Origin: Gemmatimonadota bacterium
GTDB taxonomy: Bacteria > Gemmatimonadota > Gemmatimonadetes > Gemmatimonadales > Gemmatimonadaceae
DNA: 36,303 bases
Assembly: GCA_031372565.1 (NCBI GenBank)
Contig: JANMLN010000171.1
Location: forward strand, 1 to 36,303
Direction: 5' to 3'
The notes below the pieces were generated by a model, which saw only the letters and a list, made by a program, of their open reading frames with translations, was not told the DNA's origin and made no database searches. Position numbers and translations under genes: made by a program. Of this stretch, positions 1 to 24,395 are shown piece by piece (position 1 is the stretch's first letter; every line of letters starts with the position of its first letter).

Positions 1-1215
1 GCCGCATTGCTTGAGCCAATGGTGAGTCACGGATTCGCGGCCGCGCGCTTCCGGAACGGGCTCGTCACGGCCCAGATCGCCCTCTCCATGGCGCTGCTCA
101 TCTCGTCGGGGCTCTTCCTCAAGAGCCTCGCGAATGTCAGCCGCGTGGACCTGGGCATCCGCGTGGACGACATGGTGACCTTCGACATCAGCCCGCGTCG
201 CACCGGCTACGACAGCGCGAGCACGACGGCGCTGTTCCGTCAGGTGGCGGAGGAACTCCGCGCCATTCCGGGCGTCACCGCGGTCACCGAGTCCGTGGTG
301 CCGCTGCTGGCCGGCGACAACTGGGGCAACAGCGTGAAGGTGCAAGGCTTCCCGCACGGTCCCGACGTGGACGACAACTCGCGGTTCAATGCCGTGGGCC
401 CCGGCTTCTTCTCCACCATGGGGGTGACGCTCACCTCGGGACGCGAGTTCACGCCGTCGGACGAGGTGGGGGGCGCGAAGGTGGCGGTCGTGAACCAGGC
501 GTTCGCCGACAAGTTCAGGCTCGGCCGCGACGCCGTGGGCAAGTTCATGACCAACAGCGACACGGGGGCGCTCAACATCCAGATCGTCGGGCTGATCCCC
601 AACATCAAGTACAGCAGCGTGAAGGACTCGGTTCCTCCCGTGTTCTACCTCCCCACGCGGCAGGATGCCCGCATCGGGTCGCTGTACTTCTACGTCCGCA
701 CCTCGCTCGCCCCGGCCGAGTTGCTCGGTACCATCCGCACCGTGCTCAAGCGCCTGGCCCCCACGGTACCGGTGGAGGACCTGCGCACCATGCCGCAGCA
801 GGTGAAGGACAACATCTTCCTCGACCGGATGATCAGCGTGCTGACCGCCGCGTTCGCCTTCCTGGCAACGTTGCTCGCGGGGGTGGGTCTCTACGGCGTG
901 CTGGCGTACTCCGTGGCGCAGCGGACGCGCGAGATCGGGGTGCGCATGGCGCTCGGCGCCGACGGTGGCACCGTGCGCCAGATGGTGCTCAGGCAGGTGG
1001 GCGGCATGCTCCTCGTGGGCGGCGCCATCGGCATCGTGGCGGCGCTCGGGCTCGGGCGCGCCGCGCAGTCCCTCCTCTACGGCCTCCAGGGACACGATCC
1101 CCTGGTCTTCGGCGCCGCCGTGGTGCTGCTCGCCCTCATCGCGCTCGGCGCCGGATGGATTCCCGCCCGTCGTGCCGCCATGATCGATCCCATGCTGGCC
1201 CTCCGGTACGATTGA
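1..1215 (+). CDS. ABC transporter permease, MacB/FtsX family (ADOP-type duplicated permease); 5'-partial, C-terminal half only
   Basis: Frame is open from base 1. Motifs 'LVTAQIALSMALL', periplasmic 'VGPGFFSTMG..L..GREF', 'GLYGVLAYSVAQRTREIGVRMALGA' and terminal 'IPARRAAMIDPMLALRYD'. Stop TGA 1213-1215 overlaps the next ATG. Confidence 0.93.
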   Translation, partial: AALLEPMVSHGFAAARFRNGLVTAQIALSMALLISSGLFLKSLANVSRVDLGIRVDDMVTFDISPRRTGYDSASTTALFRQVAEELRAIPGVTAVTESVVPLLAGDNWGNSVKVQGFPHGPDVDDNSRFNAVGPGFFSTMGVTLTSGREFTPSDEVGGAKVAVVNQAFADKFRLGRDAVGKFMTNSDTGALNIQIVGLIPNIKYSSVKDSVPPVFYLPTRQDARIGSLYFYVRTSLAPAELLGTIRTVLKRLAPTVPVEDLRTMPQQVKDNIFLDRMISVLTAAFAFLATLLAGVGLYGVLAYSVAQRTREIGVRMALGADGGTVRQMVLRQVGGMLLVGGAIGIVAALGLGRAAQSLLYGLQGHDPLVFGAAVVLLALIALGAGWIPARRAAMIDPMLALRYD

Positions 1216-2459
1216 TGGACATCGCGCGAGAGAAGCCCAGGCGACGCGGGCGCAACGTGGCCATTGGCGTTGGCGTGGCGCTCCTCGTGATCGCCACGGT
1301 GGCGGTGTCGGGGCTCAAGCCCGCCGCGCCCACCGTGGAGCGCAACGCGATCCTCATCGACTCGGTCAGCCGGGGCGACGTGGTGCGCGAAGTGCGCGGC
1401 CCGGGCACGCTCGTGCCCGAGCAGATCCGCTGGATCACCGCGCAGGCCTCGGCGCGCGTCGAGCGACTGGGCGCCGAGTCGGGGCGACAGGTGGCGGCCG
1501 GCGACGTGCTGCTCGAGCTGTCGAACCCGGACCTGCGCATCCAGACCATGCAGGCCGAGCAGCAGGTGCAGCAGGCGCAGATCGCGTTGCTCAACCTCAA
1601 GACGTCGCTGCGCAGCCAGGTGCTCACGCAGGAAGGACTCGTGGCCACCACGCGCACGCAGTACCTGAGCGCGATGGCCGAGGGCGCGGCCGCCGACTCG
1701 CTCGGGGCACGCAAGCTGCTCTCGGTCATCGAGTCCACCAATCGGCGGGCGCAGGCTGAGGAGCTCACCGTGCGCTATCGGGTGGAGCGCGAGCGGCTGG
1801 ACCTGATGCGCCAGTCGATCGATTCGCAGGTGGCCGTGCAGGCGGCGCAGGTGGTGCAGTTGCGCGCCATTGCCGACAACCAACAGGCCCGGCTCCGGTC
1901 GCTGTCGGTGCGGGCCCCCGAGGCCGGCGTGCTCCAGGACCTCACGCTGCAATTGGGCCAATGGGTGCCCGAGGGGACCACGCTCGCCAAGGTCGTGCAG
2001 CCGGGCAAGCTCAAGGCCGTGCTGCGCATTCCGGAGTCGCAGGCCAAGGATGTGCAGCTCGGGCAGCCGGCCATGATCGACACGCGCAACGGCATCGTGA
2101 AGGGCCACGTGATGCGCAAGGATCCCTCGGCGCAGGGCGGGTCGGTGACGATTGACGTGGCGCTCGACGGACCGCTGCCGGCCGGCGCCGTGCCCGACTT
2201 GAGCGTGGACGGCACCATCCAGGTGGACCGGATGGTGAACGTGATGCACACCGGCCGTCCCTCGGGGAGCGCCGGCGCCGGCACCATGGGCCTCTTCCGG
2301 CTGGAGGCCAATGGCGACGAAGCCATCCGCGTGCCGGTGGAGATCGGCCGCGTGTCGGTGAATGCCATCGAGATCCTCCGTGGCCTCGCTGCAGGCGACC
2401 GGCTGATCGTGTCCGACATGACCCCGTACGTGAATGCCAACCGCGTGCGGATCAAGTAG
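1215..2459 (+). CDS. Efflux transporter periplasmic adaptor subunit (HlyD/MacA-type membrane fusion protein)
   Basis: ATG at 1215 overlaps the upstream stop (TGATG). N-terminal basic stretch plus TM helix, 'RGDVVREVRGPGTLVPE', coiled-coil hairpin, 'VRAPEAGVLQ' lipoyl half-motif, C-terminal 'GL..GD.LIVSD'. Confidence 0.92.
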   Translation: MDIAREKPRRRGRNVAIGVGVALLVIATVAVSGLKPAAPTVERNAILIDSVSRGDVVREVRGPGTLVPEQIRWITAQASARVERLGAESGRQVAAGDVLLELSNPDLRIQTMQAEQQVQQAQIALLNLKTSLRSQVLTQEGLVATTRTQYLSAMAEGAAADSLGARKLLSVIESTNRRAQAEELTVRYRVERERLDLMRQSIDSQVAVQAAQVVQLRAIADNQQARLRSLSVRAPEAGVLQDLTLQLGQWVPEGTTLAKVVQPGKLKAVLRIPESQAKDVQLGQPAMIDTRNGIVKGHVMRKDPSAQGGSVTIDVALDGPLPAGAVPDLSVDGTIQVDRMVNVMHTGRPSGSAGAGTMGLFRLEANGDEAIRVPVEIGRVSVNAIEILRGLAAGDRLIVSDMTPYVNANRVRIK

Positions 2460-2490
2460 TCCGCTTCGCCCACCCCTTCAGGACGCTCTC

Positions 2491-3204
<714 letters not shown>

Positions 3205-3315: not shown

Positions 3316-4512
3316 CTAGGGATTCTGCGGGGCGGGAGCGGTGGGTCGCACGAGCGGCACACGCGGTCGGCCTCCCGGCCTCGGCGACGTCCGCTGCACC
3401 CGCGGCCCCTCCAGCTGCAGGTCGTCAAGCCCTTCCTTGGTCTCGATCACCCGACCGTCGATTGCCACGTACGTGATGTCCACGCGCCGATTTCGCGCGA
3501 GGTCGGTCACGTTCCCCTCGGCCGTCTTCAGGTTGGCCTTGCCCAGCGCCTGGAGCTGGATGCGCTCCGCCTCGATCCCCTTACCCACCAGGAACGCCTT
3601 CACCGCCTCGGCCCGGCGCTGTGACAGCGCCTGGTTGTACGCGGCGTTGCCGCGCGAGTCGGTGTTGCCTGAGAGGGTGACGCTCACGCCGGCATAGCGG
3701 AGCATCGAGTCGGCCGCGGCCTGCAGCACGCGCTTGCTGCCCGCCGACAGCGTGTCGAGGTTGAGGCCGAAGTGCACGTTGGGGGGCACACCGGTCAGCA
3801 GCTTCGGCGACGTGACCTTCACGTCGGGCACGGTGGACGGCGCCGGATTGCGGGCGATGTACAGCGTGTCGACGCGTGGCGGCGTCAGCTGTACCACCCC
3901 GGGCGGCGGGCGCGAGATGATCCCCACCGCGCCCATCGCGGCGACCTCGGCCAACCGCTGCGGCTTCTCGTTGGGGCACGACAGGTACCCCGCCGCCTCG
4001 AGCGCCGCGCGAACGAGGTGCAGTTCGAGCGCCGCCAGTTCCGCCGACACGCGCTCGAGGTCCTTCGAACCGCGCAGGTCGTCGGCCAGCTTCCACAGGT
4101 CCGCGCGAACGCGTGGTGCGTACGTCGGCGACGCGGTGCCTTGCGCCAACGCGGGCACCTCGCCGGTCTCGAGCGCGCGCGTGAGCTTCACCGCCTCGCC
4201 AAGCGCGTCGCTCGCCACGCTCCCCTTCGCATTGCCCTCGTACGTCTCGCGGGCGAGCGAGACCCACCGCTGCGCCTTCTCGAACGGATACTGCGACAGC
4301 GTCGGCAACCGGCGGCGCGCTGCGAGGAGCCGCCCCTGCCAGAGGTCCAGGGCCGCCTGGTCGCCGGCGATGACCTCGTCGGACAGCCGCTCGCTCACCG
4401 GGTGCAGCGTGGTGCGCTCCTCCCCCTGCGCGCCGAGCGACGGCGCCAGCAGCAGGAAGGCCGAGAGCAGCGTGGCGCGCCGCGCGCGCGTGGACATTGG
4501 CATGGGATTCAT
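3316..4512 (-). CDS. OmpA-C (peptidoglycan-binding) domain protein with signal peptide and helical N-terminal domain, about 398 aa
   Basis: ATG at 4512 overlaps the TGA of the giant gene. Signal peptide 'RARRATLLSAFLLLAPSLGA|Q'. OmpA-C motifs 'VHFGLNLDTL', 'GNTDSRG..AYNQALSQRRAEAV' and 'NRRVDI'. Pro/Arg-rich tail. Confidence 0.9.
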   Translation of the reverse strand: MNPMPMSTRARRATLLSAFLLLAPSLGAQGEERTTLHPVSERLSDEVIAGDQAALDLWQGRLLAARRRLPTLSQYPFEKAQRWVSLARETYEGNAKGSVASDALGEAVKLTRALETGEVPALAQGTASPTYAPRVRADLWKLADDLRGSKDLERVSAELAALELHLVRAALEAAGYLSCPNEKPQRLAEVAAMGAVGIISRPPPGVVQLTPPRVDTLYIARNPAPSTVPDVKVTSPKLLTGVPPNVHFGLNLDTLSAGSKRVLQAAADSMLRYAGVSVTLSGNTDSRGNAAYNQALSQRRAEAVKAFLVGKGIEAERIQLQALGKANLKTAEGNVTDLARNRRVDITYVAIDGRVIETKEGLDDLQLEGPRVQRTSPRPGGRPRVPLVRPTAPAPQNP

Positions 4513-7500
4513 CACTTGCTCCCGGCGACCGCGGGCGCCGAGGCGCCGCGCCCAAAGAGGGATTCGTCGAACTTGAAGGCGAAGTCGAGGTAGGCGCCCT
4601 TCATGGTGAAGCCGAAGCTGCTCAGGTCGCGATCGCGGTAGCCCCACATGTTGTACCCCACCGCGAGACGCAGGTTGGTCAGGATGATCCGGCCCACTTC
4701 GGCGCCCAGCCCGTACTTGCGCGCGGCGCCGCCGTCGTTGAAGAGCACGGAGCCGATGAGCCCCGCATCCCAGCGCGGAGTGAGGTCGTAGATGGCGCGC
4801 GCCATCAGCAACTGCGCGTCGCTGGTGGTGACGAACCCTTCGCTGCGGTCGGTGGCGTACTTGGCCGCCAGGCGCCCGCTCAGCACGAGCCGGGCGTTGG
4901 CTTGGTAGTTGAGCAACCCGGCCACGATGTGCGCGTCGAACCCTGTCGCCGGCAGCCCCACCGGCGTCTGGTTCTCGCGGCGCAGCTCATAGCGCAGGAG
5001 GCCGTTCCAGCGGTTCTCGTCGGTCTCGCGCCACGCCACGCCGAAGTGCGCGCGGAGCCGATCGCCGAGGGTGCCCTGCTGGTCGAACAGGCCGCGCGTG
5101 AGCAGCGTCCAGTCGCGCGAGAGCTTCTGCGCGATGCCGGCGCTGAACAGGTAGCCGTCCTGGCCGTTCTGGCGGCGCCACTCGGCCCGGCTCGTCACCT
5201 TGGTGGTGGCGGGACGGGTGTACTCGATGGCGCCGGTGACAGCCGTGGCGTTGCCGAGCCCCGCGCCGACCAGCGGTGCAACGCGCTCGAGGCTGGTGTT
5301 CACCAGCAGCCCGGGCCCGAGCGCCCACCGGTTGCGCAGGCCGATCGACGCCTCGGCGTCGCGACCGTTGATGGCGTCGCGTTCGCGATACTCGCTGAAG
5401 ATCTGCGCGTTCTTCATGTAGTCGGCATCGATGCCGAACACGGTGTTCTGCTGCGTCTGGCTCGACGTCAGCCCGTACGGGCCGGCGTAGCCGTCAATCC
5501 ACTCGTGGCGGGCATAGGCGCGGGCCCGGCTGGCGATCACGTACTCGCCACCGAGCGAGGCGCGCGTGGCCGAACCGCCCATGTCGCGCTCCAGCTCGCC
5601 GAACACCGACGATCGGTCGCTCCCAGGCAGCCGCGACGTGACCTTGGCGCGGAAGGCGGAGAACGAGGGCGGTACGAGCAGCCCGGTGGTGGCCGCCGAG
5701 GCGACCCCGGTCTCCTTGGCCCACCGAAGGCCCAGCTCGGCGCGGATCATCGTACCGAACGACCGTTCGAGGGTGACGAGCGCCCCGTCGCGCTTGCCCC
5801 CCGTGCGCAGGTCCTCGGTCTCGATGGCCTCGGCCAGCAGGCGCAGCTCCTTCGTCATGGCGAGCGTGGCGCGCGCGCCCAGCTCCTGCCGCCCGGTGCC
5901 GAAGGTGGCCGAGCGGTTGGCGAAGCCGATGCCGGCGCGGGTGCCGTAGACGCGCGCCTCGAAGCCGTCCTGCGCGTGCCGCAGCTCGAACCGGCCGGCG
6001 CGGCCGTCCTGGCCCGCCATGCCGGTGGCCTGCGCGACCTCGACGATGCCCACCGTCCGATCGGCGAAGCGGATGCTGGCGTTCGCGCCGAAGAGCTTGA
6101 GTGAGTCGAGCGGATTCTCGTCGAGCACCGCCACGCCGCCCACTTCCACGCGATCACCGAGCTTGACGGCGCCATCGGCGCCGTACGTGTTGTAGGCGAT
6201 GCCCCCCTGGTCCACCTCGTACGTGACGCGGATGGAGACGGGGTTGAGGTTCGCGTCGAGGCTGGCCACCGGAGCCCGGAAGAGCAGCCGGCCGGTGAAC
6301 GGCTCCACCGTGTAGTCGGCAAAGCGGGTCATGGGCCGCGACTGCAGGATGAGCGCCGGCTGGTTGCGATCGCGGGTGAGGATCTCCACGCGCTCGCTGT
6401 TGATCACCGCGTTCTGGCGCGACAGGAAGTACGGACCGGAGATGCCGCGCCCCGGCAGCTCGTCGATCACCTGCGAGATGGTGCCGCGCGCCGCATACAC
6501 GTTGGCGAGGCCGCGCGCGCCCTCCTGGTGCAGCTGGATGCCGTTGAGCGAGCGGTCCCACGAGCCGAGCAGGCGGCGCTCGTCGCTGCGCGCGGTGGCG
6601 AAGTCGCCGAACCGGTAGTACGAGGCGCCGTCGTCGATGCGCGCGTACAGCCGGCGCTGCGACTGGCCGTCGAACTCGCGCAGCGAGCCGTCGCCGTAGG
6701 TCGGGAACATCTCGTCGGGCTGGATGTCGCGGAACTGCGTCCGGTTCGGGTCGCGCTCGGAGTCAAAGCCCAGGGTGAGCAGCTTGTCGCCGAGCACGGT
6801 GCCCTTGGCGAAGAGCGCCGCGCGCAGGCCGCCGCGCACCTTCCCCGAGTCCTGCGAGAACGACCAGGCGGTGAGCCGCGACTCAAACGCCTCGTCGGGG
6901 GCACTCGTGACGAGCGAGCCGCCCGAGAAGGCCGCGAGGTCGATGCGTCCGGTGACGAGGCCGGCCACCACGAGCGCGCGGTTGGCGGGGGTGAAGGTGA
7001 TGGGGAGCGCCGACTGCGCATTGGGCGACGTGACGCGGATCTCGCCACGTCCCGGCTGCCCGGGCACGAGGAGCTTGAACATTCCCTCGCCGTCGGTCAC
7101 CACCACCTGCGCGCCCTGGTCGGTGCGATCCACGTCGCCCACGAGCCAGCGGCCGAGCGACGCCTCGAGCGTGACGGGCACCCGTCCGGTGAGCTTGTTC
7201 CCCTTGGCGTCGAACAGCTTGACCACCACCGGAATGGCGCTGGTGCCGTCGGCGGGATAGGCGGTGCCCGTGAGGCCCAGCTCCACGCGCCCGGCGCTGG
7301 TGCGCGTGCCGGGCATCAGCTGCGCGGCGCGGAGCGGCGTGGCCGGGAGGTTCGACGTGGCGTCGCTCAGGATGGGCGCGGCAATCGGCGCGGCGGCCGA
7401 GAGCACCGGCACCGCGGTGGGCGCCTCGGTGCCTCCCATGGGCGCGGCGCCTTCCATGCGCGACAGGTCGCCCTCGACCACCGGCATGGTGGGCGCGGCC

Positions 7501-10500
7501 TCACGAACCGGCACGCCGCCGCTGGCCGGCGGCGCCGTGGGCGGCGTCACCCCCGCGGCGATCGGCGCTCCCGCGCTCGTCGGCGCCACGGGCGGCATGG
7601 CCGCGCGGATCGAGTCGGCATTGGACCAGTCCACGGCCCGGGTGCTGTCCGGCTTCTGCGGGATGATGGCGGCCTCGGGCTCGCTCTTCCGGCGGCGCTC
7701 GCGAACCGCCAAGAGCACCTGCGCGTCGTTGGCCGTGGCGAAGTCGGCCTTGCCGAGCTCGCCCCCCTTCACGTCCACGAACCGGGAGGCGGCGTCGAGG
7801 GCGTTGCGGTTGCTCGTGACCACGAGGCGCGCGCCGACGGGCAGCGTCGTGGCATCCACCTTCACCACGTGCATCCCCGACGACACGTCCCAGAAGTTGT
7901 ACTTGCCCTCGCCGTCGGTGATGGCCGAGGTGCCGTCCTCGAGGTAGACGCGGACGCCCGGGATGCCGAGCTCACCCTGCGTCTGCATGCGCTCGTCGGC
8001 GCAGTCGCACGAGGCAAACACCTTGCCCACGATGACGCCGCGATCGCTGAAGACGCCGCGCCGCACGATCACCGCCGCCGCCGCGTTGTTGGCCTGCACC
8101 ACGAGGGTGCCGCTCGATGCGGTGGCGCGGTTGACGGACGTTCCGGCCCGGATGTTGGCGCCGATCTTCACGCGGTAGCTGACGTGCTTCTCGTCGCCGG
8201 GGTTGAGGGTCCCGAGCGGCCAGGTGAGGGCCGGGCCGGCGCCACCCGACGGGTCGGCGAACGCCACGCCCTCGAGCCGGCTGGTGCCCAGCTGGTACAG
8301 GAAGCCCGCCGGCAGCAGGTCGTTGATCTGCACGTTCGGCACCGGCGAGCGGCCAATGTTCTTGACGGTCACCGTGTAGTCGTTCACGCCGCCCACTTCC
8401 ACCACCGGCGACCGCGACACCTTCTGGATGAAGAGGCGGAAGTCGCCGACCACGCTCACCGTGGCGCAGGAGCGGTTGTTGGCGGTGTTCGCGTCGAGCG
8501 CGGCCGCCCCCACCGCGCAGTTGGTGATTGCGCCGTTGAGGTTCGCGGCGGCGCGCACCTTCATCGTCACGAGCACCGAGTCGCCGTCGGCGATCGGGGT
8601 GCCGGTGGAACAGGTCACCACCACGCCGGCCACGGCGCACGTCCATCCCGCGCCGGTGCCACTCGTGAACGTGAGGCCGGCGGGCAACGTGTCCACCACG
8701 GTCACCGTGCCCTGCGTGGGCACGTTGCCGCGGTTGGCCACGCGGAAGATGAAGTCGTTGTCGATGCCGCTCGTGAACTGCGCCCCGACGGCCGTCTTCA
8801 GGAGGTCGAGGTCCACCACGCCGCGCACGACGCTCGCCTTGCTCGCGCGGTTGTTGGTGGTGTCCACGTCGCCCGCCACGCTCGCGGCCACGCGGTTGGT
8901 CACGCCGGGGAACGCTGCCTTGCTCACCAGCGCGGTGAGCGTGATCGGCGTGGAGGCGCCCAGGGCGAGCGCCGCGGTGCTCGTGCAGGTCACCACCGCG
9001 CCCGCCGCCGCGCAGCCGAAGCCCGCGCCGGCCGCCGACTGGAAGGTCAGCCCCGTGGGCAGCGAGTCCACCACTATGAACCCGGCCGGTGCCGGCAGCG
9101 AACCCACGTTGGTCACCGTGAGGGTGTAGGTGGCGCTCGTGCCCACGTTCAACGTGTCGCCGCCGGTCTTGGCCACGGCCACGTTCACTTGGCCGGTGAC
9201 CACGGTGCGCACCGAGTCGCGGTCGTTGCCGCTCCCCACGTCGCCCGGCGTCAGCACGCGCGCGATGTTCGACACGGCGGGCACCGCCGTCACCCCCGGC
9301 GTGACCGCGAGGGTCACCACGGCCGAGGCACCGGCGGCGAGCGGCACCGTGCGCAGGCAGCTCACCACGCCCGCGCTCGCCGTGCACGCGAACGACGGGC
9401 CCGTGGCCGACACGAACGCCAGCGACGCCGGCAGCGAGTCGGTCACGCGAATGGTGTCGGTGGTCGCCCCGGTGCCGATGTTCTGCACGGTGAGCGTGTA
9501 GCTGGCCGCGGTGCCCACGCCGAAGGCGCCCACGGCAGCCTTGGTCAGCCGCAGGTCGGGCGTGGCCGCGACCGGCACGGCGCCCGTGGTGCCCGCATTG
9601 TCGCCCGTGACGGTCTCCCCCGGCGTGCTCACCCGTGCCGCGTTTGTCACGCTCGGCAGGGCGGCGGCCGCCACGTTCACCGTGACCGTAACGAGGCTCG
9701 AGTCCAGCCCGGCGATCGGCGCCGGCTGCGTGCAGGTCACCACGGTGGCCGCGCCCGGCGCCGCGCAGCTCCAGCCGGCGCCCGTGGCCGAGACGAAGGT
9801 CAACCCGGCGGGCAGCGTGTCGAGCAACGCGGTCACCCCGCTCGTGGCGATGGTCGCGACGTTGCGCACCACGAACTGGAACTGGGCCGTGCGACCCACC
9901 GCGAAGGCGCCGATCGCGCGCTTCACCAGCTGCACGTTGGGCGCGGCCGAGATCGTCACCGGCGCGCTCGACGCCGAGTCGTTGGCCGGCACGAGGTCGC
10001 CCGGGGTGCTGGCCCAGGCGCGATTCACGATCGAGGCCGGGGTGCCGACGCCGACGATGGCGCGCACCACGACCGATGCCGTGTCGCCCGCGACGAGCAC
10101 GGCCGCCCGCGCGCAGCTCACCACGCTCCCGGCCGCCGAGCAGCTGAAGGTGGACGGTTGCGCCGAGAGGAACACCAACGCTGTGGGCAGCGTGTCGGTG
10201 AGCGTCACCGCGCCGGTCGTGGGCCCGGACCCGCCGTTGCTCACGCGGAGCCGGAAGCTCGCCGTGTCGCCCACCGCGTAGCTGGCGGCCAGCGCGGTCT
10301 TGGTCATCGCGAGGTCGGGCACCACGGTCACGCCGATGGCCGGCGTGGTGGCGGTGTTGTTCGTGGCGTTCACGTCGCCCGGCGTGGTCACGGTGCCGCT
10401 CACGATCACGCTGGGGAGTGCCCCCGGCAGGACGTTCACGCTGATGTTCACGAACGAGGAGTCGCCCGGCACGAGCGGACCCGGGTTGGTGCAGGTCACC

Positions 10501-13500
10501 ACCTGGCCCACCGCGCTGCAACTCCAGCCGGTGCCGCTCCCCGACGCGAAGCTCAGCCCCGGCGGCAGCGTGGTGGAGTAGGTCAGCGGGGCGGTGGTTG
10601 TCCCCGAGCCCACGTTGCGGATCGTGTTGCGCAGGGTCGCGGGCTGACCCACCACGAATGCGCCGAGCGGCGCCGTGGCGAGCGAGAGGTCCGGGGCGAC
10701 GCCCACCGGCACCGCCGGGGTGGCAGCCGAGTCGTTGACCGCCGCCGGGTCGCCCGGCGTGGCAACCACGGCCGAGTTGGTCACGCTCGGCTGCGCCGCC
10801 GGCAGCACGTTGACGGTGAGCGTCACGACCGAGGAGTCGGCGATGGCGATGGCCGTGGGCGAGGTGCACGTGACCAGCTGCGCGACCGCGCTGCAGGTCC
10901 AGCCCGTGCCGACGCCGCTCGCGAAGGAGAGGCCCGTTGGGAGCGGGTCGGTGATGGTGACCAATGCACTCGTGGCGGCCGACCCGGTGTTGCGGACCAC
11001 CAGGCGATAGGTGGCCGTCGCACCCACCACGAAGCTCCCGACCGCCGTCTTGGTCATGGACAGGTCGGGGGCGGTGGTCACGGGGATGGACGGCGTGGCC
11101 GACGTGTTGTTGGCGCCCACCGGATCACCCGGCGTGGTGACCGTGGCCGAGTTGATGACGCTGGGCAGGGCGCCCGCCAGCACGTTCACGGTGAGCGTCA
11201 CGACCGATGAGTCTGCCGGCAGGATGGGGCCGGCGTTGGTGCAGGTGACCGCCTGCGCCACCGCGCCACAGCTCCACCCGGTGCCCGTGCCCGACACAAA
11301 GGCGAGCCCGGTGGGCAGCGTGTCGGTGAGAGTCACGGCGCCCGTGGTGCTCCCGGAGCCCATGTTGCGCGCGACGATGCGGAACGTGGCCGGTCGCCCG
11401 ACGATGAACGCGCCGACTCCCGCCTTGCCCAGCACCAGGTCTGGCGCCACGCCGATGTTGCCCAGCGGCGCGCTCCCCGAGTTGTTGCTCGCGTTGGGAT
11501 CGCCGGTGGCCGACACCCACGCGCGGTTGGCCAGGGTGCCCGTGGCGTTCGCGGCCACGAGCGTGGTCAGCGTGATCGCCACCGAGTCGCCCACCAGGAG
11601 CGGCGTGGCGCGCGTGCACGTCACCACTTGGCCGCTCACGCCGCAGGTGAAGCCGCCACCCGATCCGAACACGAACGAGAGCACGGTCGCCAGCGTGTCG
11701 GTGACCGTGACCGTGCCGGTGGTCGCGGCGGACCCGAGGTTCTGCACCGAGAGCGTGTAGACCTGATTCTGCCCGGCCACCGGGTTGGTCGAGCCGGCCT
11801 TGAGCAGGCGCAGGTCGGGGGCCGTGGTCACCGGCGACGTGGCCGTGCCCATGTCGTTCGTGGCGTTCGGGTCGCCCGCCGTCTGCCCCCAGGCCCGGTT
11901 GGTGGTGCTCGGCAGCGCCGGCGCGCCCACCGTCACGGACACGGTGACGACATCGGAGTCGCCCGGAGCGAGTGGTGGCGGCCGCTTGCAACTCACGACG
12001 CCGGCGGCGGCGCTGCAGGCGTACGCGCCGCCCGAGGCGCTCACGAAGGTCATGCCGGCCGGGAGCGTGTCCACCACGCGCACCGAGTCGGACGTGGCCA
12101 GCGAGCCCACGTTCTTCACCACCAGCTGCCACGACGCGGGCTGCCCCACAATGAAGGCGCCGGTGGCCGCCTTGGTGAGCTGCACGTCGGGAGCGCCACT
12201 CACCGGAGTGCCGGCCAGCGTGGTGCTGTTGTTGCCGCCGTTGGTGTCGTTCGGCGTGGTCACGGTCGCCGTGTTGCTCACGGTGGAGGCCGCCGACGGA
12301 TCCACGAGCACGGTGAGCGTCAGCACGCCCGAACCAGCGGCCGCGATCGGGCCGCTCGAGGTGCACGTCACCGTCTGGCCGGCGACAATGGTCCCGGTCG
12401 CGCTGCAGCTCCAACCGGTGCCGCTCGCGGAGACATATCCGATCCCCGGCGCGAGGTTGTCCACGACGGTGATCGTGCCCGTGGTGGCGCCCGTGCCGAT
12501 GTTGTTCACCGTGAGCTGGTAGCTCGCCGGTTGCGAGCGCACAAACGGAGTGAGGGCGATCTTGCTGACCGTGAGGTCGGGGGCGACCACCGCGAGCGTG
12601 GAGGTGACGCCGCGATCGTTGGTCGCGTTGGCGTCGCCGACGGTGCTCACGGTGGCGGCGTTGGTCACCGAGCCGAGCGCGGCGGCGGTCACGTTGGCGG
12701 TCAGCGAGAGGATCACGTCAAGTCCGGCCGTGATGGCGGGCTGCGTGGGCGGCGCCGGGCGCACGCACTGCACGATGTCGCGCGCGGGCGCGGGCGTCGT
12801 GCCGATCACGCTGCACGTGAAGGTCGCGCCCACGTCACCGCCGCTCACGAACGTCATCCCCTCCGGCAGGGTGTCGGTGACGGTCACGGCGCCGGTATTG
12901 CCCCCGGTGAGCGGCGGCACCGGCGAGACGTTGGACAGCGTGATCGTGAACGTCGTCTGGCTGCCCACGTTGATGGGACCACTCCCCGTCTTGCCCAGCG
13001 CGAAGTCGGGCACCGAGGTCACCGGGAGCGGCGCCGTCACCGCGGTGTCGTTCGCGAAGATGAAGTCGCCCGGCGTGGACACCGACACGATGTTGCGAAC
13101 GGTCGGGAAGGCGGTGAGCCCCACCGCGGCCGCGATCGGAAAGGAGACCGCCGCACCCGAGGCGATCGGGCCCGCGCTGGTGCAGGTCACGATCTGTGCC
13201 ACGGCCGAGCAGCTGAAGCCGCTGCCCCCCGAGCCGCCGGCCGAGTAGGTGAGCCCCACCGGCAGCGAGTCGCGCACGGTGATGGCGCCGGTGGTCGGGC
13301 CCGCCGACACGTTGGTGACGCTGATGTTGAACGTCGCCGTGTTGTTCACGATGATCGCGCCCGCCGGCGCCTTCGCCACGGTGAGGTCGGGAATGGACGA
13401 CACCGTCACCGGCCCCGTCTGGAAGGTGTCGTTGGTGGGATTCAGGTCGCCCGGCGCGCTGACCGTCACCCGGTTCACCTGGCTCGGCAGCGCCGACACC

Positions 13501-16500
13501 GTCACGTCCACGAACAGCGGGAAGGTGACGAGCGTGTTCGCCGCGATCGCGGTGGCGCGCGTGCAGGTGACGATGTCGCGGCCCGAGAAGGTCCCCGTCA
13601 CCGAGCAGGCGAAGCCGTTGCCGCCGGAGCCGGTGACGCGGTACGCCATGCCCGTGGGCAGCGTGTCGGTCACGGTGATCGGGCCCGGTTGGTTCCCGGG
13701 CGAGACGTTCTGCACGCGGATCGTCCAGCTGGCCGGACGGCCGACGACGAAGAGCGAGTCGGGCGCCTTGGAGATCGCGATGTCGGGCGAGGCGATGACC
13801 GCCGTGGGTGCGTCACTGCCGAAGTCGTTCGCCGGGTTCGGGTCGCCAGGCGTGCTCACCCGCACCGTGTTCGTCACGCTCGGTAGCGCCAGCGCCGTCA
13901 CGTTCACCACGAGGGCGATGGACACCGTGCCGCCCGCGGCGATGGGGCCCGCGCTGGTGCAGGTGACCACTTGGCCGAGAGCGCCGCAGGTGAACCCCGT
14001 GCCGATGCCGCTGCTGAAGCCGAGCCCGGCGGGCAGGGTGTCGGTCACCGTGATGGTGCCGGTGGTGGACGACGAGCCCACGTTGTCCACCTGCAGGGTG
14101 TAGGTGCCGGTGAAGCCCGTCACGAACGACCCGCTGTGCGACTTGAAGACGGCGAGATCCGGCGTGCCGATCACCGGCGTGGGGTCGGTGGCGCGATTGT
14201 TGGCCGTGCTCGACTCCCCGGGGGTGCTCACGCGCGCCACGTTCGTGGCGGTGCCGATCGCGCCGGCCGCCGGCGTCACCTGGATGCCGAGCGTGCTGTT
14301 GCCGCCGGCCGGAATGGGGCCGGCGTTGGTGCAGCTCACCACCTGCCCGGTGGCCACCACGCCCGTCGTGGTGCAGCTCCATCCGCCCCCGGTGGTGCCG
14401 ACGAACGCGACGTTCGCCGGGAGCGAGTCCACGAGGGTCACCACACCGGTGGTGGCGGAAGTGCCGGCGTTGGTGACCGTGAGGTTCCACGTCCCCGGCT
14501 GCCCCACCACGAAGCTCGACGGCGTGTGCGTCTTGGCAATGGTGAGGTCGGGGCGCTGGACCGTGCGCGCCGGCGCGGACCCGGTGTCGTTCGACGGATT
14601 CAGGTCACCGGGCGTGGCTGACACGACCTGATTCGTCACCGTCGCCGCAGCCGTCGAATCCACGCTCACGGTGAGCGTCACCTGGGCCGAGTCGCCGGCG
14701 GCAAGCACCGGCGCCGCCGGTCGCGTGCAGCTCACGTTCTGAGCGACCGCGCTGCAGCTGAAGCCGCCCCCCGTGCCGGAGACGAAGGTGAGGCCCGTGG
14801 CGAGCGCGTCGGTGAGGGTGATGACCCCCGTGGTCGGTCCCGGCGACACGTTCACCACGGTGAGCAGATAGCTCCCGGTGCCGCCCACGGCAAAGGCGCC
14901 ACTGAACGACTTCCGCACGGTGAGGTCGGGCACGCTCACCACGCCGATGGGTCCCGCGAAGCCGCTGTTGTTGGCGGGGTTCTGATCGCCCGGCGTGGAC
15001 ACCCACGCGCGGTTGGCGACGCTCGGGATGGCCGCGGCGGTGGGGGTCACCGTGAGCACGATGGACGCCGAGCCGCCGGGTCCGATCGGCCCCGGACTGG
15101 TGCAGGTGACCACGGGGGCGCTGAACGAACAGCTGAACCCGCCGCCCGCCGCAGAGCCGAAGGTGAGCGAGGCGGGCAGCGTGTCGGTGACGGTGATGAC
15201 GCCCGAGGTCGCGGCGCTGCCGGTGTTCTGCACCGCAAGCGTGAAGGTGCCCGCAACCCCCACCGCGAGCGTCCCGCTCGCCGTCTTGGTCAGCCCGAGG
15301 TCGGGGACGCCGAGCACGGGAGTGGCCGTCACGCGCGCGGTGTCGTTGGTCGCGTTCAGGTCGCCCGGCGTGGTGCCACGCGCCAGGTTGTTCACTGCCG
15401 GCAGCGCCGCGCCGCCAACAGCCACCGTGAGCACGATCGTGGCGGAGCCGCTCTGCGCCAGTGCCGGTACCGCCGGTCGCGTGCAGGTGACGAGCGGCGC
15501 CGCCGACACGCAGCTGAAGCCGCCCCCCGCGGCCGACACGAAGGTGAGGCCCGTCGAGAGCGTGTCCACCACGGTGATGGTGCCGGTGGTGGCCGAGCCG
15601 CCCACGTTGGTCACGGCGATGTCGTAGGTGGCGTTGGCCCCGATGCTGAAGGTGCTCGACGCCGTCTTCACCAGCTGGATGTCCACCGCGCCCACCACGG
15701 GCACCGCCGGCGACGACGCGACGTTGTTGCCCGCATTGGGGTCGAGCGGCGTGGACACGCGCGCGCGATTGGTGACCGCGGGCGCTGCGGCGGCCAGCAC
15801 GTTCACCGTGAGTGTCACGACCACGGAGTCGCCGACGGCCACCGGCGTACCTGCCGGGCGGAAGCAACTCACGACCTGGCCGGTGTTGGCGCAGGTGAAG
15901 CCGCCTCCCGTGGCGCCGGCGAAGGTGAGCCCCGTCGGCAGCGTGTCGAGCATGCGCATGCTGTCGGCGGCTGCGGCCGAGCCCACGTTCTTCGCCACGA
16001 GCGAGAAGGTGGCCGTGGACCCGATCACGAACGGCGAACCGGTGGTCCCCTTGGCCATCTGCAGGTCGGGCACGCCGATGGTCACCGTGAGGTCGCTGGC
16101 CAGGTTGTTGCCCGGCGTGTTGTCGCCGCCGCCGGAGACGCGCGCCCGGTTGGTGAAGCTGGCCGGCGCGCCGGTGGGGACGGTGACGTTCAGGGTGATG
16201 GGCGCCGCCGCCGCGGAGGCCGCGAGGCCGCCGCTCAGCGTGCACTGCACCACCTGCCCCGTGATCGTGCAGCTCCAGCCGGTGCCGCTGGCCGAGGTCG
16301 GGACGATGGGCGCCGGCACGGTGTCGAGCACCACGATCGGCGCGGCCGTGGTCCCGCCGTTGCCGACGTTGGTGACGGTGAGCGTGTAGGCCCCGGTGCC
16401 GCCGCGCGAGAAGTCGGCGGGGTGAGTCTTGGTGATCGTGAGGTTGGGACCCGCCACGGGCGAGAGGGTCGGCGGGGTGCCACCGCCGCTCGTCAGCGAA

Positions 16501-18026
16501 TCCCGGCTCTTGGCATTGATCGGCGTGCCGAGCGTCTGCGAGATGCCGGTGACGACCGCCTGGTTGGTGATGATGAAGCCGGCCGGGATCGTGTCGCCGA
16601 CGACGACGCGAAACTGGACTGCCGTGGTGGCCCCGGGGGCGAGCGTCCCGCCAGTGGCGCCATTCGCACCGGTGCCGAGGCGGAACACCACGCGCGGCGT
16701 GCCGGTGGACTGATACTCCCCCTGATCGTCGGCGAGTGGGTCGGTCTTCACCCCCGCGTTCGCCCCGTTCACCACGCGCAGCGTGCCCGTGGCGTACGTG
16801 GTGCCGGTCGGGATCGTGTCGATGAGGACGGAACTGAGGGCGCCGTCCTGCCCGGAGTTGGCCACCGTCATGTAGTAGAGCAGCGTGTCGCCGGGCGAGA
16901 GCAGCCCGCCGTTCACGTCGGTCACGAGCTTGACGACGTTGCCGTTGATGACCGGGTTGAACAGGTCGACGAGGAAGGTGAGCACGCCGGGGAGGTACTG
17001 GTCGCCCGAGGTCGTGAAGGAGATCGTCGCACTGGTGGCCCCGGCGGGCACGGCCGCGGTCTTCACCTGCTTGGCGTCCACCCCCATCTGGTTGGTGAAC
17101 GCCGGGTTCTGGCCCGCCGTCACGTACACGCCCGTGTCGGCGATGGTGGAGTTGAAGAAGTCGCCGGCCAGTGAATTCACGTCGGCGAGGTCGGTGCCGT
17201 TGACGCGCATGCGGTCACCGGTGAAGCCGGTGCCGCGGTCCCCTTCCCACGAGACCACGCCGACGCGCGTGGTGGGGGTGCCGAGCGCGGGGGTGAGGAA
17301 GCCCGACACGGTGGTGTTCACGGTGGACCCGCCCTGGATGTTCCCGAAGCCGTCGAACACCGTGAGGTTGCGGAGCGGCCTCGATCCGTCGCGCAGCACC
17401 ACCACCAGCGACCAGCCGGCATAGTCGTTGCCGGCGGCGGTGTTGATGTTCGCCTGCACGTTGCCCACCGAGTAGCTGCCCGAGCCGCCGGCCTGCACCA
17501 GCGACGTGACGTTCACGAACCCCTGGTACTCGGTGCCCGTGCCGTTCGCGTCGAGCGTCGAGGCGGTGACGGTGATGTAGCCGGGGGTGGCGGGGGTGCG
17601 GAACTGCACCTGGCCGCGCTGCGCACTGGTCGAGCGCGCGCTCCAGTAGAGGCCGGCCCACAACACGCTGGCCCCGGTGGGGACGTTCAGCGACGAGACA
17701 CTCGAGTTGAACGTGGCGGGATTGCCGTCCACGTCCACGTACTGCATGCGGTAGTTGTTGTTGACGCCCTGGTTGAGCGACACGGTGCCCGACTGCGCCT
17801 GGGCACAGGTGAGGGCGCCTGCCGTGGAGCCCGTGGCGAGCGTGTTGCTGCAGGTGGCCAGCGTGTTGCCGCGGATGACGATGTCGCCGGCATCGTTGAC
17901 GGAGAACCGCGTCGTGTACGCGCGGCGCACCTGGGCTTCGGCGGCGGAGGTCGCGATCATGAGACCAACGCCAGCGAGGATGGCGCGCGCGACAACAGAC
18001 CCCGCGCGACGGAGGCGGGGCATCAC
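4512..18026 (-). CDS. Giant secreted DUF11-repeat surface protein/adhesin (4,504 aa) with C-terminal predicted outer-membrane beta-barrel region
   Basis: Uninterrupted ORF (GTG 18026 or ATG 18023). Sec signal ending 'AAEA|Q'. Head domain with WAGLYW / GWSLVVV / FDGF / EGD / FFNSTI motifs. 23 repeats of 'PDLxxxK...N.G...D(T/S)LP...N.A.V'. SdrD-B-like domain, Pro/Ala linker and Ig-like domain, then ~820 aa with amphipathic beta-strand pattern ending 'GAYLDFAFKFDE'. Confidence 0.92.
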   Translation of the reverse strand: MMPRLRRAGSVVARAILAGVGLMIATSAAEAQVRRAYTTRFSVNDAGDIVIRGNTLATCSNTLATGSTAGALTCAQAQSGTVSLNQGVNNNYRMQYVDVDGNPATFNSSVSSLNVPTGASVLWAGLYWSARSTSAQRGQVQFRTPATPGYITVTASTLDANGTGTEYQGFVNVTSLVQAGGSGSYSVGNVQANINTAAGNDYAGWSLVVVLRDGSRPLRNLTVFDGFGNIQGGSTVNTTVSGFLTPALGTPTTRVGVVSWEGDRGTGFTGDRMRVNGTDLADVNSLAGDFFNSTIADTGVYVTAGQNPAFTNQMGVDAKQVKTAAVPAGATSATISFTTSGDQYLPGVLTFLVDLFNPVINGNVVKLVTDVNGGLLSPGDTLLYYMTVANSGQDGALSSVLIDTIPTGTTYATGTLRVVNGANAGVKTDPLADDQGEYQSTGTPRVVFRLGTGANGATGGTLAPGATTAVQFRVVVGDTIPAGFIITNQAVVTGISQTLGTPINAKSRDSLTSGGGTPPTLSPVAGPNLTITKTHPADFSRGGTGAYTLTVTNVGNGGTTAAPIVVLDTVPAPIVPTSASGTGWSCTITGQVVQCTLSGGLAASAAAAPITLNVTVPTGAPASFTNRARVSGGGDNTPGNNLASDLTVTIGVPDLQMAKGTTGSPFVIGSTATFSLVAKNVGSAAAADSMRMLDTLPTGLTFAGATGGGFTCANTGQVVSCFRPAGTPVAVGDSVVVTLTVNVLAAAAPAVTNRARVSTPLDPNAGNNVASSPAVPVVGAVDIQLVKTASSTFSIGANATYDIAVTNVGGSATTGTITVVDTLSTGLTFVSAAGGGFSCVSAAPLVTCTRPAVPALAQSGSATIVLTVAVGGAALPAVNNLARGTTPGDLNATNDTARVTATPVLGVPDLGLTKTASGTLAVGVAGTFTLAVQNTGSAATSGVITVTDTLPASLTFGSAAGGGFSCSFSAPVVTCTSPGPIGPGGSASIVLTVTPTAAAIPSVANRAWVSTPGDQNPANNSGFAGPIGVVSVPDLTVRKSFSGAFAVGGTGSYLLTVVNVSPGPTTGVITLTDALATGLTFVSGTGGGFSCSAVAQNVSCTRPAAPVLAAGDSAQVTLTVSVDSTAAATVTNQVVSATPGDLNPSNDTGSAPARTVQRPDLTIAKTHTPSSFVVGQPGTWNLTVTNAGTSATTGVVTLVDSLPANVAFVGTTGGGWSCTTTGVVATGQVVSCTNAGPIPAGGNSTLGIQVTPAAGAIGTATNVARVSTPGESSTANNRATDPTPVIGTPDLAVFKSHSGSFVTGFTGTYTLQVDNVGSSSTTGTITVTDTLPAGLGFSSGIGTGFTCGALGQVVTCTSAGPIAAGGTVSIALVVNVTALALPSVTNTVRVSTPGDPNPANDFGSDAPTAVIASPDIAISKAPDSLFVVGRPASWTIRVQNVSPGNQPGPITVTDTLPTGMAYRVTGSGGNGFACSVTGTFSGRDIVTCTRATAIAANTLVTFPLFVDVTVSALPSQVNRVTVSAPGDLNPTNDTFQTGPVTVSSIPDLTVAKAPAGAIIVNNTATFNISVTNVSAGPTTGAITVRDSLPVGLTYSAGGSGGSGFSCSAVAQIVTCTSAGPIASGAAVSFPIAAAVGLTAFPTVRNIVSVSTPGDFIFANDTAVTAPLPVTSVPDFALGKTGSGPINVGSQTTFTITLSNVSPVPPLTGGNTGAVTVTDTLPEGMTFVSGGDVGATFTCSVIGTTPAPARDIVQCVRPAPPTQPAITAGLDVILSLTANVTAAALGSVTNAATVSTVGDANATNDRGVTSTLAVVAPDLTVSKIALTPFVRSQPASYQLTVNNIGTGATTGTITVVDNLAPGIGYVSASGTGWSCSATGTIVAGQTVTCTSSGPIAAAGSGVLTLTVLVDPSAASTVSNTATVTTPNDTNGGNNSTTLAGTPVSGAPDVQLTKAATGAFIVGQPASWQLVVKNVGSLATSDSVRVVDTLPAGMTFVSASGGAYACSAAAGVVSCKRPPPLAPGDSDVVTVSVTVGAPALPSTTNRAWGQTAGDPNATNDMGTATSPVTTAPDLRLLKAGSTNPVAGQNQVYTLSVQNLGSAATTGTVTVTDTLATVLSFVFGSGGGFTCGVSGQVVTCTRATPLLVGDSVAITLTTLVAANATGTLANRAWVSATGDPNASNNSGSAPLGNIGVAPDLVLGKAGVGAFIVGRPATFRIVARNMGSGSTTGAVTLTDTLPTGLAFVSGTGTGWSCGAVAQAVTCTNAGPILPADSSVVTLTVNVLAGALPSVINSATVTTPGDPVGANNTSATPSIPVTTAPDLSMTKTAVGSFVVGATATYRLVVRNTGSAATSALVTITDPLPTGLSFASGVGTGWTCSAVAQLVTCTSPTAIAIADSSVVTLTVNVLPAAQPSVTNSAVVATPGDPAAVNDSAATPAVPVGVAPDLSLATAPLGAFVVGQPATLRNTIRNVGSGTTTAPLTYSTTLPPGLSFASGSGTGWSCSAVGQVVTCTNPGPLVPGDSSFVNISVNVLPGALPSVIVSGTVTTPGDVNATNNTATTPAIGVTVVPDLAMTKTALAASYAVGDTASFRLRVSNGGSGPTTGAVTLTDTLPTALVFLSAQPSTFSCSAAGSVVSCARAAVLVAGDTASVVVRAIVGVGTPASIVNRAWASTPGDLVPANDSASSAPVTISAAPNVQLVKRAIGAFAVGRTAQFQFVVRNVATIATSGVTALLDTLPAGLTFVSATGAGWSCAAPGAATVVTCTQPAPIAGLDSSLVTVTVNVAAAALPSVTNAARVSTPGETVTGDNAGTTGAVPVAATPDLRLTKAAVGAFGVGTAASYTLTVQNIGTGATTDTIRVTDSLPASLAFVSATGPSFACTASAGVVSCLRTVPLAAGASAVVTLAVTPGVTAVPAVSNIARVLTPGDVGSGNDRDSVRTVVTGQVNVAVAKTGGDTLNVGTSATYTLTVTNVGSLPAPAGFIVVDSLPTGLTFQSAAGAGFGCAAAGAVVTCTSTAALALGASTPITLTALVSKAAFPGVTNRVAASVAGDVDTTNNRASKASVVRGVVDLDLLKTAVGAQFTSGIDNDFIFRVANRGNVPTQGTVTVVDTLPAGLTFTSGTGAGWTCAVAGVVVTCSTGTPIADGDSVLVTMKVRAAANLNGAITNCAVGAAALDANTANNRSCATVSVVGDFRLFIQKVSRSPVVEVGGVNDYTVTVKNIGRSPVPNVQINDLLPAGFLYQLGTSRLEGVAFADPSGGAGPALTWPLGTLNPGDEKHVSYRVKIGANIRAGTSVNRATASSGTLVVQANNAAAAVIVRRGVFSDRGVIVGKVFASCDCADERMQTQGELGIPGVRVYLEDGTSAITDGEGKYNFWDVSSGMHVVKVDATTLPVGARLVVTSNRNALDAASRFVDVKGGELGKADFATANDAQVLLAVRERRRKSEPEAAIIPQKPDSTRAVDWSNADSIRAAMPPVAPTSAGAPIAAGVTPPTAPPASGGVPVREAAPTMPVVEGDLSRMEGAAPMGGTEAPTAVPVLSAAAPIAAPILSDATSNLPATPLRAAQLMPGTRTSAGRVELGLTGTAYPADGTSAIPVVVKLFDAKGNKLTGRVPVTLEASLGRWLVGDVDRTDQGAQVVVTDGEGMFKLLVPGQPGRGEIRVTSPNAQSALPITFTPANRALVVAGLVTGRIDLAAFSGGSLVTSAPDEAFESRLTAWSFSQDSGKVRGGLRAALFAKGTVLGDKLLTLGFDSERDPNRTQFRDIQPDEMFPTYGDGSLREFDGQSQRRLYARIDDGASYYRFGDFATARSDERRLLGSWDRSLNGIQLHQEGARGLANVYAARGTISQVIDELPGRGISGPYFLSRQNAVINSERVEILTRDRNQPALILQSRPMTRFADYTVEPFTGRLLFRAPVASLDANLNPVSIRVTYEVDQGGIAYNTYGADGAVKLGDRVEVGGVAVLDENPLDSLKLFGANASIRFADRTVGIVEVAQATGMAGQDGRAGRFELRHAQDGFEARVYGTRAGIGFANRSATFGTGRQELGARATLAMTKELRLLAEAIETEDLRTGGKRDGALVTLERSFGTMIRAELGLRWAKETGVASAATTGLLVPPSFSAFRAKVTSRLPGSDRSSVFGELERDMGGSATRASLGGEYVIASRARAYARHEWIDGYAGPYGLTSSQTQQNTVFGIDADYMKNAQIFSEYRERDAINGRDAEASIGLRNRWALGPGLLVNTSLERVAPLVGAGLGNATAVTGAIEYTRPATTKVTSRAEWRRQNGQDGYLFSAGIAQKLSRDWTLLTRGLFDQQGTLGDRLRAHFGVAWRETDENRWNGLLRYELRRENQTPVGLPATGFDAHIVAGLLNYQANARLVLSGRLAAKYATDRSEGFVTTSDAQLLMARAIYDLTPRWDAGLIGSVLFNDGGAARKYGLGAEVGRIILTNLRLAVGYNMWGYRDRDLSSFGFTMKGAYLDFAFKFDESLFGRGASAPAVAGSK
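8045..16960 (-). repeat. Tandem array of 23 DUF11 (TIGR01451-like) Ig-fold protein repeats, about 125-145 aa each
   Basis: Counted by eye in the translation. Repeats 2-22 (from 16448) share PDLxxxK, DTLP, (W/F)xC...VxC, NxAxV and GDxNxxN(N/D). Repeats 1 and 23 are Cys-free variants. Units are divergent at the DNA level. Boundaries approximate. Confidence 0.88.
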
Positions 18027-24287: not shown

Positions 24288-24395
24288 GCCTGAGAAGATG
24301 GAGAGCGCCGCCGTGTTGCGGCAGCGCCCACCGTGCGCTGGCGCGCGCGTGCACACCACCGCATGATGGAGTCGTCCCTTTGCGCCGGAGAGCGT

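Follow-up and report, generated by a model that had tools for sequence, protein, structure and literature searches.

Organization of the giant gene

The DNA analyzed here (the window) is a stretch of 36,303 nucleotides, positions 1 to 36,303 of contig JANMLN010000171.1 in assembly GCA_031372565.1, which belongs to a bacterium of the Gemmatimonadaceae (Gemmatimonadota). Its G+C content is about 70%. The window carries a giant open reading frame (ORF) at 4512..18026 (stop codon counted), which encodes a protein of 4504 amino acids (aa) and lies, like all the features of this gene described below, on the reverse strand. The protein consists, in this order, of a signal peptide, a head of about 320 aa, 23 CLIPPER/DUF11 repeats, an SdrD_B-like domain, a Pro/Ala-rich linker, and a C-terminal region of about 865 aa. 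The 23 repeats form a stalk (aa 355-3330; 8037..16964) in which one repeat, the 17th (aa 2445-2569; 10320..10694), has neither the Lys, Asp, and Asn residues predicted to give the other repeats an intramolecular isopeptide bond nor the aromatic residue that would cap this bond. The sequence, fold, and origin of this repeat are the main subject of the present analysis.

When the whole protein was compared with domain libraries, PF01345 (DUF11) was matched with 797 bits over 22 stretches, along with DUF7933 (Pfam), and matches to TIGR01451 and TIGR04226 were also found (NCBIfam). The latter model, which is named "isopeptide-forming domain-containing fimbrial protein," was matched with 145 bits. 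All the DUF11 matches in the 4.4-Mb assembly were located inside this single gene. The sequencing runs that contain this DNA are labeled freshwater sediment metagenome.

Sequence of repeat 17

The 23 repeats, i.e., 21 carrying the Cys residues and the divergent flanking ones at aa 355-526 and aa 3196-3330, were aligned using MAFFT. The first-pass annotation of this DNA had pointed to repeat 17 as the only one devoid of the Lys, the Asp, the Asn, and the aromatic residue, and this was borne out by the alignment: 22 of the 22 other repeats keep the strand-A Lys, the Asp of a D-x-L/V/I-P motif, the Asn of an x-N-x-A/V motif, and a Tyr, Phe, or Trp on strand B, whereas the corresponding motifs in repeat 17 read PDLSLATAP (Lys replaced by Thr), TYSTTLP (Asp by Thr), SVIVSG (Asn by Val), and ATLRNT (the aromatic residue by Leu). 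At the codon level, the Lys column (aa 2451; 10674..10676) has ACG in place of the AAG present in five sister or related repeats, the aromatic-cap column (aa 2465; 10632..10634) has CTG in place of the TTC, TAT, or TAC of the sisters, the catalytic Asp column (aa 2485; 10572..10574) has ACC in place of GAC, and the Asn column (aa 2542; 10401..10403) has GTG in place of AAC or AAT, all three bases being changed in this last case. The four codons differ from those of the closest sister by eight base changes in all. Repeat 17 contains no Lys, His, or Glu residues, and each of the neighboring repeats contains a single Lys, that of the triad.

In other respects the repeat resembles the two that precede it, as had been noted at the outset: it shares 62% of its residues with the repeat at aa 2195-2319 (11070..11444), which is its closest relative, and 55% with that at aa 2320-2444 (10695..11069), and the triad is intact in both. 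The motif GDVNATNN, an instance of the GDxNxxNN signature, is retained, as are the two cysteines at alignment columns 59 and 68 (aa 2503 and 2512; 10491..10520), which are invariant in all 65 Cys-type repeats analyzed and lie on adjacent hairpin strands in the structural model described below.

The comparison was extended to 71 other repeats from the same protein and from four related genomes. The Asp, the Asn, and the aromatic residue are present in 71/71 of them, and the Lys in 69/71, the two misses being due to trimming of the alignment at the ends of weak terminal domains; at column 21, repeat 17 thus has a Leu where Tyr, Phe, or Trp occurs in every other case. Twelve alignment columns are conserved in at least 85% of the 64 other Cys-type repeats, and those at which repeat 17 deviates are exactly K7, D41, and N98; if three of the 12 had been hit at random, the chance of their being the triad would be 1/220. 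The conserved residues N27, G16, L43, V66, A92, D107, and N112 are kept, along with both cysteines. The loss of the triad in repeat 17 is therefore confirmed as real and non-random.

The sequence of repeat 17 is not an assembly artefact, since two more samples of that study yielded contigs which span window positions 10330-11100 and 10211-11100 and show no differences from it; the stretch is thus carried by contigs of three samples, and eight base changes distributed over four codons are incompatible with a single sequencing error. Apparent variants at window positions 10763-10802 were rejected, as they arose from a second placement of a contig, with 23 mismatches, on a neighboring repeat and do not represent alleles. 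A protein search of the whole database returned only the protein itself at 100% identity, the next best match being at most 53% identical; the names borne by its nearest matches point to the Gemmatimonadaceae. In metagenome contigs, the best match to repeat 17 was 54% identical, no copy from the same species being found.

Immunoglobulin-like (Ig) domains held by ester bonds are known from other adhesins (PMC8382745), and a Thr occupies the Lys column of repeat 17, so a different crosslink, such as a Thr-Gln ester, a bond from another Lys, or an extra disulfide, could be envisaged. Alternative crosslinks were rejected in view of the composition of the repeat, which has no Lys, His, or Glu, has no cysteines other than the two of the family, and carries a Val in the Asn column. 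An explanation of the missing triad by another crosslink or by an assembly error is thus extremely improbable.

The triad in the published CLIPPER structure

The DUF11 family was renamed "CLIPPER" by Costa et al. (2025; PMC12617251), who reported the structure of a domain from the Acinetobacter silvestris adhesin B9T28_05395 at a resolution of 1.77 Å (PDB 9IFR). According to this report, the domain contains an isopeptide bond between Lys715 and Asn806 adjoining Asp748, such bonds may be covered by "aromatic caps," and the bond residues are absent from some DUF11 domains, including those of archaeal porin/S-layer proteins (PMC12617251). The K715A variant was described there as folded, with a melting temperature (Tm) lowered from about 80 to 45°C, incomplete refolding, and greater sensitivity to proteinase K.

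A profile built from the repeats of the window matched a single PDB entry, 9ifr_A (E-value 1.3e-8, HMMER), and the Lys, Asp, Asn, and aromatic columns were all aligned with those of the structure. The Lys-Asn spacing in this alignment is 91, which fits the published residue numbers exactly (PMC12617251). The idea put forward in the first-pass annotation that the Lys, the Asp, the Asn, and the strand-B aromatic residue form one functional unit, namely a Lys-Asn isopeptide with a catalytic Asp, agrees with what has been reported for the family; the inference was right, but it was already in print, and the chemistry is not new (PMC12617251). By analogy with 9IFR, the 22 canonical repeats should have strands A and G stapled together by an autocatalytic Lys-Asn isopeptide. 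The position of column 21 as an aromatic cap in three dimensions is inferred from its alignment with a Tyr of 9IFR. Judging from its sequence, repeat 17 is unable to form the Lys-Asn bond, because Thr, Thr, and Val stand in place of the strand-A Lys, the catalytic Asp/Glu, and the late-strand Asn/Asp, and because no Lys is present.

The Acinetobacter domain and the repeats analyzed here share a family profile and a CnaA-like Ig fold, predicted in the case of the repeats; both are stalk domains of giant surface proteins made by Gram-negative bacteria, and the 22 canonical repeats have all the triad positions in common with 9IFR, which repeat 17, having lost the Lys, the Asp, the Asn, and the aromatic residue, does not. 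The two systems differ in other ways: 9IFR is described as having a C-terminal CTTC motif, whereas the two cysteines in the repeats of the window sit in a hairpin, at columns 59 and 68, and the Acinetobacter adhesin has a fused OmpA-like anchor (PMC12617251), whereas the present protein has a C-terminal barrel-like region and a separate, adjacent OmpA gene.

The K715A variant, likewise a CLIPPER domain incapable of forming the isopeptide, is the best proxy available for repeat 17 (PMC12617251). In K715A, however, a single residue was substituted and the buried Asp and Asn remain, whereas in repeat 17 the whole triad and the aromatic residue are replaced and about 12 neighboring positions are remodeled. 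Unlike K715A, repeat 17 may therefore have regained stability by remodeling. A more distant parallel is provided by the isopeptide-stapled pilins of Gram-positive bacteria, in which the bond is reported to make the domain resistant to degradation and to unfolding by mechanical force (10.1101/310227). The principle of the bond is the same, but the pilins are subunits polymerized by sortase, whereas the stalk studied here is a single polypeptide of tandem domains in a diderm bacterium.

Folding and selective constraint of repeat 17

When repeat 17 was taken alone, no Pfam family was matched at E≤0.01, and the gathering score of PF01345 (24.6 bits) was not reached, whereas three neighboring repeats scored singly 51.6, 52.2, and 65.6 bits against this family. 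Residues seldom found in the family occur at 15 positions of repeat 17, the second-highest number among the 65 repeats (median 9), and its branch in the tree of repeats is longer. All these features would be compatible with a decaying, unfolded pseudo-domain serving as a mere flexible spacer. The descent of the repeat from CLIPPER/DUF11 domains is nonetheless shown by its identity to the adjacent repeats and by its place in their clade. Several observations speak against decay: the repeat is 125 aa long, like its sisters, without any insertions or deletions; the cysteines and the seven other conserved residues listed above are kept; and the ratio of nonsynonymous to synonymous substitution rates (dN/dS) is 0.43 between repeat 17 and its sister as compared with 0.44 in a canonical sister pair, both values being rough at a dS of about 0.7-1.0.

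The structure predicted by AlphaFold2 from a 65-row family alignment is likewise that of a CnaA-like Ig β-sandwich. The mean predicted local distance difference test score (pLDDT) is 97.6 for repeat 17 and 97.3 for the sister at aa 2195-2319, and the 10 strands follow the pattern of the sister except for one boundary residue and a short helical turn. The best PDB match of the model in Foldseek is again 9IFR (E-value 1.3e-7, TM-score 0.72). As a family alignment imposes the fold of the family whether or not the domain is stable, the model is weak evidence, and the evolutionary data argue more strongly than the model that repeat 17 is not decaying.

The distribution of the rare residues points in the same direction. 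They include columns 7, 21/23/25, 37/39/41, 81/83/85, and 98/100, which in the model fall on every second residue of strands A, B, C, F, and G. This alternation (i, i+2, i+4) along the strands suggests that one face of the core was repacked after the loss of the buried polar triad. The aromatic residue lost from column 21 is accompanied by a Tyr acquired at column 39, and the replacements are hydrophobic or β-branched, not random. A Jensen-Shannon analysis of column shifts between triad-less and intact repeats gave weak, lineage-dependent support for the other remodeled columns. An unfolded, decaying repeat 17 is very unlikely.

Origin of repeat 17 in related genomes

Relatives of the giant gene were searched for using the unique C-terminal 945 aa of the protein as the query. 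High-identity counterparts were identified in three of the five congeneric genomes and in one further genus. Besides the gene of the window (G000), which is full length and has 23 repeats, full-length genes with 21 and 10 repeats were found in G003 (locus L012) and G004 (L014), respectively; the gene of G001 (L013), which is cut by a contig end, has 18 full repeats and a fragment, hence no fewer than 19 in all, and the gene fragment of G023 has one full repeat. The number of repeats in this gene therefore ranges from 10 to 23 within a single genus, and block duplications of units of three to four repeats, with near-identical copies, were observed in G001.

None of the 50 repeats read in these four genomes has lost the triad, so the possibility raised in the first-pass annotation that orthologs keep a triad-less repeat at a similar position does not hold in this genus. 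In a tree of the 65 repeats, repeat 17 is the sister of the repeat at aa 2195-2319; its clade also includes that at aa 2320-2444, one repeat of G003, and two repeats of G001. Since G003, the closest full-length relative, has one repeat in this clade where the window has three, repeat 17 is, according to the tree, a lineage-specific extra copy in a stalk of fluid copy number. Its branch is about twice as long as that of its sister. In relative-rate tests, repeat 17 showed 19-25 unique changes versus 8-12 in the sister, i.e., a protein rate about 2-3 times higher, with chi-square values of 3.9-8.8 with three outgroups and an excess that was not significant with a fourth (chi-square 1.58).

These data bear on a possible selected function, in which repeat 17 would be a sacrificial or extensible element, unfolding first under load and so absorbing shocks, or exposing a protease site for the controlled release of the distal part of the stalk. 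It would be the only fully extensible repeat of the 23, and it has been kept intact under purifying selection, with an apparently compensated core, instead of being deleted. The triad-less state is not conserved in the genus, however, and repeat 17 arose recently as an additional copy where the number of copies varies from 10 to 23.

Loss of the triad across the DUF11 family

Other giant DUF11 proteins were surveyed with a hidden Markov model (HMM) of the repeat: 119 proteins (P0003-P0121) yielded 1809 repeats spanning the triad columns, 1575 of which have an intact triad, 91 have lost all three residues, and 143 have a partial triad. The number of triple losses expected if the three losses were independent is about 0.9, although such counts disregard the relatedness among repeats and the alignment of divergent ones may be wrong, so the comparison describes a pattern and not a probability. 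This coupling supports the view that the triad is a single unit. The Asp is absent from 100 repeats, in 99 of which the Lys is absent too, while the partial triads include 67 losses of Lys only, 53 losses of Asn only, and a single loss of Asp with the Lys kept, which suggests that the buried Asp is retained as long as the Lys remains. The aromatic residue is present in 1570 of the 1575 intact repeats, in 136/143 partial ones, and in 45 of the 91 triad-less ones. The triad residues are replaced mainly by L, V, I, A, G, T, and F. In a separate metagenome sample comprising 32 loci, the triad was found to be intact in 83 of 105 repeats.

At least one triad-less repeat occurs in 29 of the 119 proteins. 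In P0004 and P0005, 11-13 consecutive repeats are triad-less, and in P0051 and P0108 this is so of 11-14 of the 14-15 repeats. Because of these long runs, entire stalk segments without isopeptides can be said, on the basis of their sequences, to exist. Natural DUF11 domains lacking the bond residues, whether noted by Costa et al. (2025; PMC12617251) or found in the present survey, resemble repeat 17 in this respect, but repeat 17 is a single, recent, lineage-specific case within an otherwise fully canonical stalk.

As regards selection for a sacrificial element, the survey can be read in two ways. Exactly one triad-less repeat in an otherwise intact stalk was found in 7 of the 93 stalks of at least 10 repeats, and a triad-less repeat is conserved at the sixth position in P0093, P0102, and P0095, three proteins of another lineage, where the repeats are reciprocal best matches with 50-60% identity. 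Triad losses of all degrees are nevertheless scattered throughout the family, as expected from drift, and no positional rule was seen. Taking into account the reported effect of bond loss in K715A on stability and protease resistance (PMC12617251), which would favor such a role, we still regard selection of repeat 17 as a sacrificial or extensible element as unlikely.

Other regions of the protein and neighboring genes

The N-terminus shows a putative Sec signal peptide, which was read by eye and ends with AEA. The database copy of the protein (P0002) has 4482 aa, since it starts 22 codons downstream of the ORF start used here (17958-18026). The longer start seems to be better, because the P0002 start would cut into the apparent signal peptide, removing its basic and hydrophobic parts. 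The head (aa 31-349; 16980-17936) gave only a sub-threshold match to GLEYA, a PA14-like lectin family (19 bits, cut-off 26.2). In the region after the last CLIPPER repeat (aa 3329-3560; 7347-8042), an SdrD_B-like (CnaB-type) stretch, scoring 26.8 bits, slightly below the Pfam cut-off of 29.7, is followed by the Pro/Ala-rich linker. No Pfam family was matched by the C-terminal 865 aa (aa 3640-4504; 4515..7109), which are similar to clusters in the Atlas that are unnamed and described as "outer membrane protein / beta-barrel" (feature score 0.96). The sequence YLDFAFKF lies about 20 residues before the end of the protein, and 10 of 61 related genomes contain relatives of this C-terminal region. 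This barrel-like region is probably the anchor of the protein, which we take as a lead only.

Directly downstream of the giant gene and on the same strand, an ORF at 3316..4647 encodes an OmpA-family peptidoglycan-binding domain (PF00691, 52.9 bits). As listed, with a GTG start, this ORF has about 135 bases in common with the end of the giant gene, and the true start is therefore probably located later. The product may be a separate anchoring partner of the giant protein. Of the features expected of a fibrillar adhesin, the stalk is clear, the signal peptide was recognized by eye, the head shows a sub-threshold GLEYA match, and the anchor is suggested by the look-alikes and by the adjacent OmpA gene. 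The sequence is consistent with a fibrillar, adhesin-like surface protein of this Gemmatimonadaceae bacterium.

The OmpA-domain gene is adjoined by a row of genes on the forward strand (7-3204) encoding a MacB-type permease (FtsX/MacB_PCD), an HlyD-family adaptor, and an ABC ATPase, an arrangement suggestive of a tripartite system for efflux or export. On the other side of the giant gene, an ORF of 1100 aa (21231-24533, reverse strand) shows an unusual three-part fusion of an APH-type phosphotransferase, a Peptidase_M23 domain, and a class-III aminotransferase. Kinase and phospho-lyase pairs from the APH-type phosphotransferase and class-III aminotransferase families are known, but the M23 insert is odd.

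Interpretation and significance of the triad-less repeat

The data are best accounted for, in our opinion, by a repeat 17 that is folded but incapable of forming the isopeptide, that is probably the only link of the stalk vulnerable to heat, force, or proteases, and in which the loss of the bond was tolerated in a redundant copy and then compensated; we consider this reading likely. An extra copy of the repeat would have arisen in this lineage, the replacement of its triad and aromatic residue by Thr, Thr, Val, and Leu would have been tolerated, and the hydrophobic core would then have been repacked, compensating for the lost buried polar residues. Tolerated loss followed by compensation is the most likely course, and not a purpose-built fuse, because the state is not conserved in the genus, the repeat originated as a spare copy, and losses are scattered throughout the family.

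In a stapled domain under load, the force would be carried by strand A, the bond, and strand G, so that about 90 residues are bypassed. Repeat 17 would be extensible over its full length, apart from the 8 residues enclosed by the disulfide, and complete unfolding would add about 40 nm, at roughly 0.36-0.4 nm per residue. Since it is the only stalk domain without a staple, repeat 17 would unfold before the others and be the domain most prone to cleavage by proteases. CnaA domains have reportedly been discussed as shock dissipaters by Echelman and colleagues in 2016. A higher susceptibility of repeat 17 to force, heat, and proteases is a reasonable inference by analogy with the K715A variant, as far as that variant has been described (PMC12617251). 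A role of repeat 17 as a hinge, which the first-pass annotation had also suggested, was rejected, as it does not follow from the loss of a bond inside the domain. A more ambitious version, in which a crosslink-free domain with a re-engineered core is kept in an otherwise fully stapled stalk as a mechanical fuse, a shock absorber, or a protease-gated release site, by a design recurring in other lineages, appears rather improbable.

Several points weigh against the idea of a folded, unstapled repeat 17 that owes its state to tolerated loss. The crosslink in the 22 repeats and its absence from repeat 17 are both deduced from sequence and homology, and in the alignment with 9IFR the Asp is located 34 residues past the Lys, as against 33 in the published numbering (715 and 748; PMC12617251). 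When four proteins rich in triad-less repeats were excluded from the survey, the aromatic residue was found to be kept in 31 of the 42 triad-less repeats, so its coupling to the triad is weaker than it appears at first. The triad-less repeat conserved in P0093, P0102, and P0095 leaves a selected role some probability, and the limits mentioned above of the structural model, the dN/dS values, the fourth outgroup, and the family counts also have to be taken into account.

Repeat 17 belongs, in degenerate form, to a domain family that was already known, and it adds no new mechanism, as the isopeptide chemistry of CLIPPER domains was already established. The survey makes small additions to the published one, namely the all-or-none character of the loss, the rarity of Asp loss without loss of the Lys, and the hydrophobic nature of the replacements. 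What the stalk provides is a natural matched pair of repeats, 62% identical, one of which is crosslinkable and the other not, which could be used to determine the contribution of the bond to stability and the way in which a core is rebuilt once the bond has been lost. This has a bearing on the engineering of isopeptide domains and on the extent to which adhesin stalks tolerate weak links.

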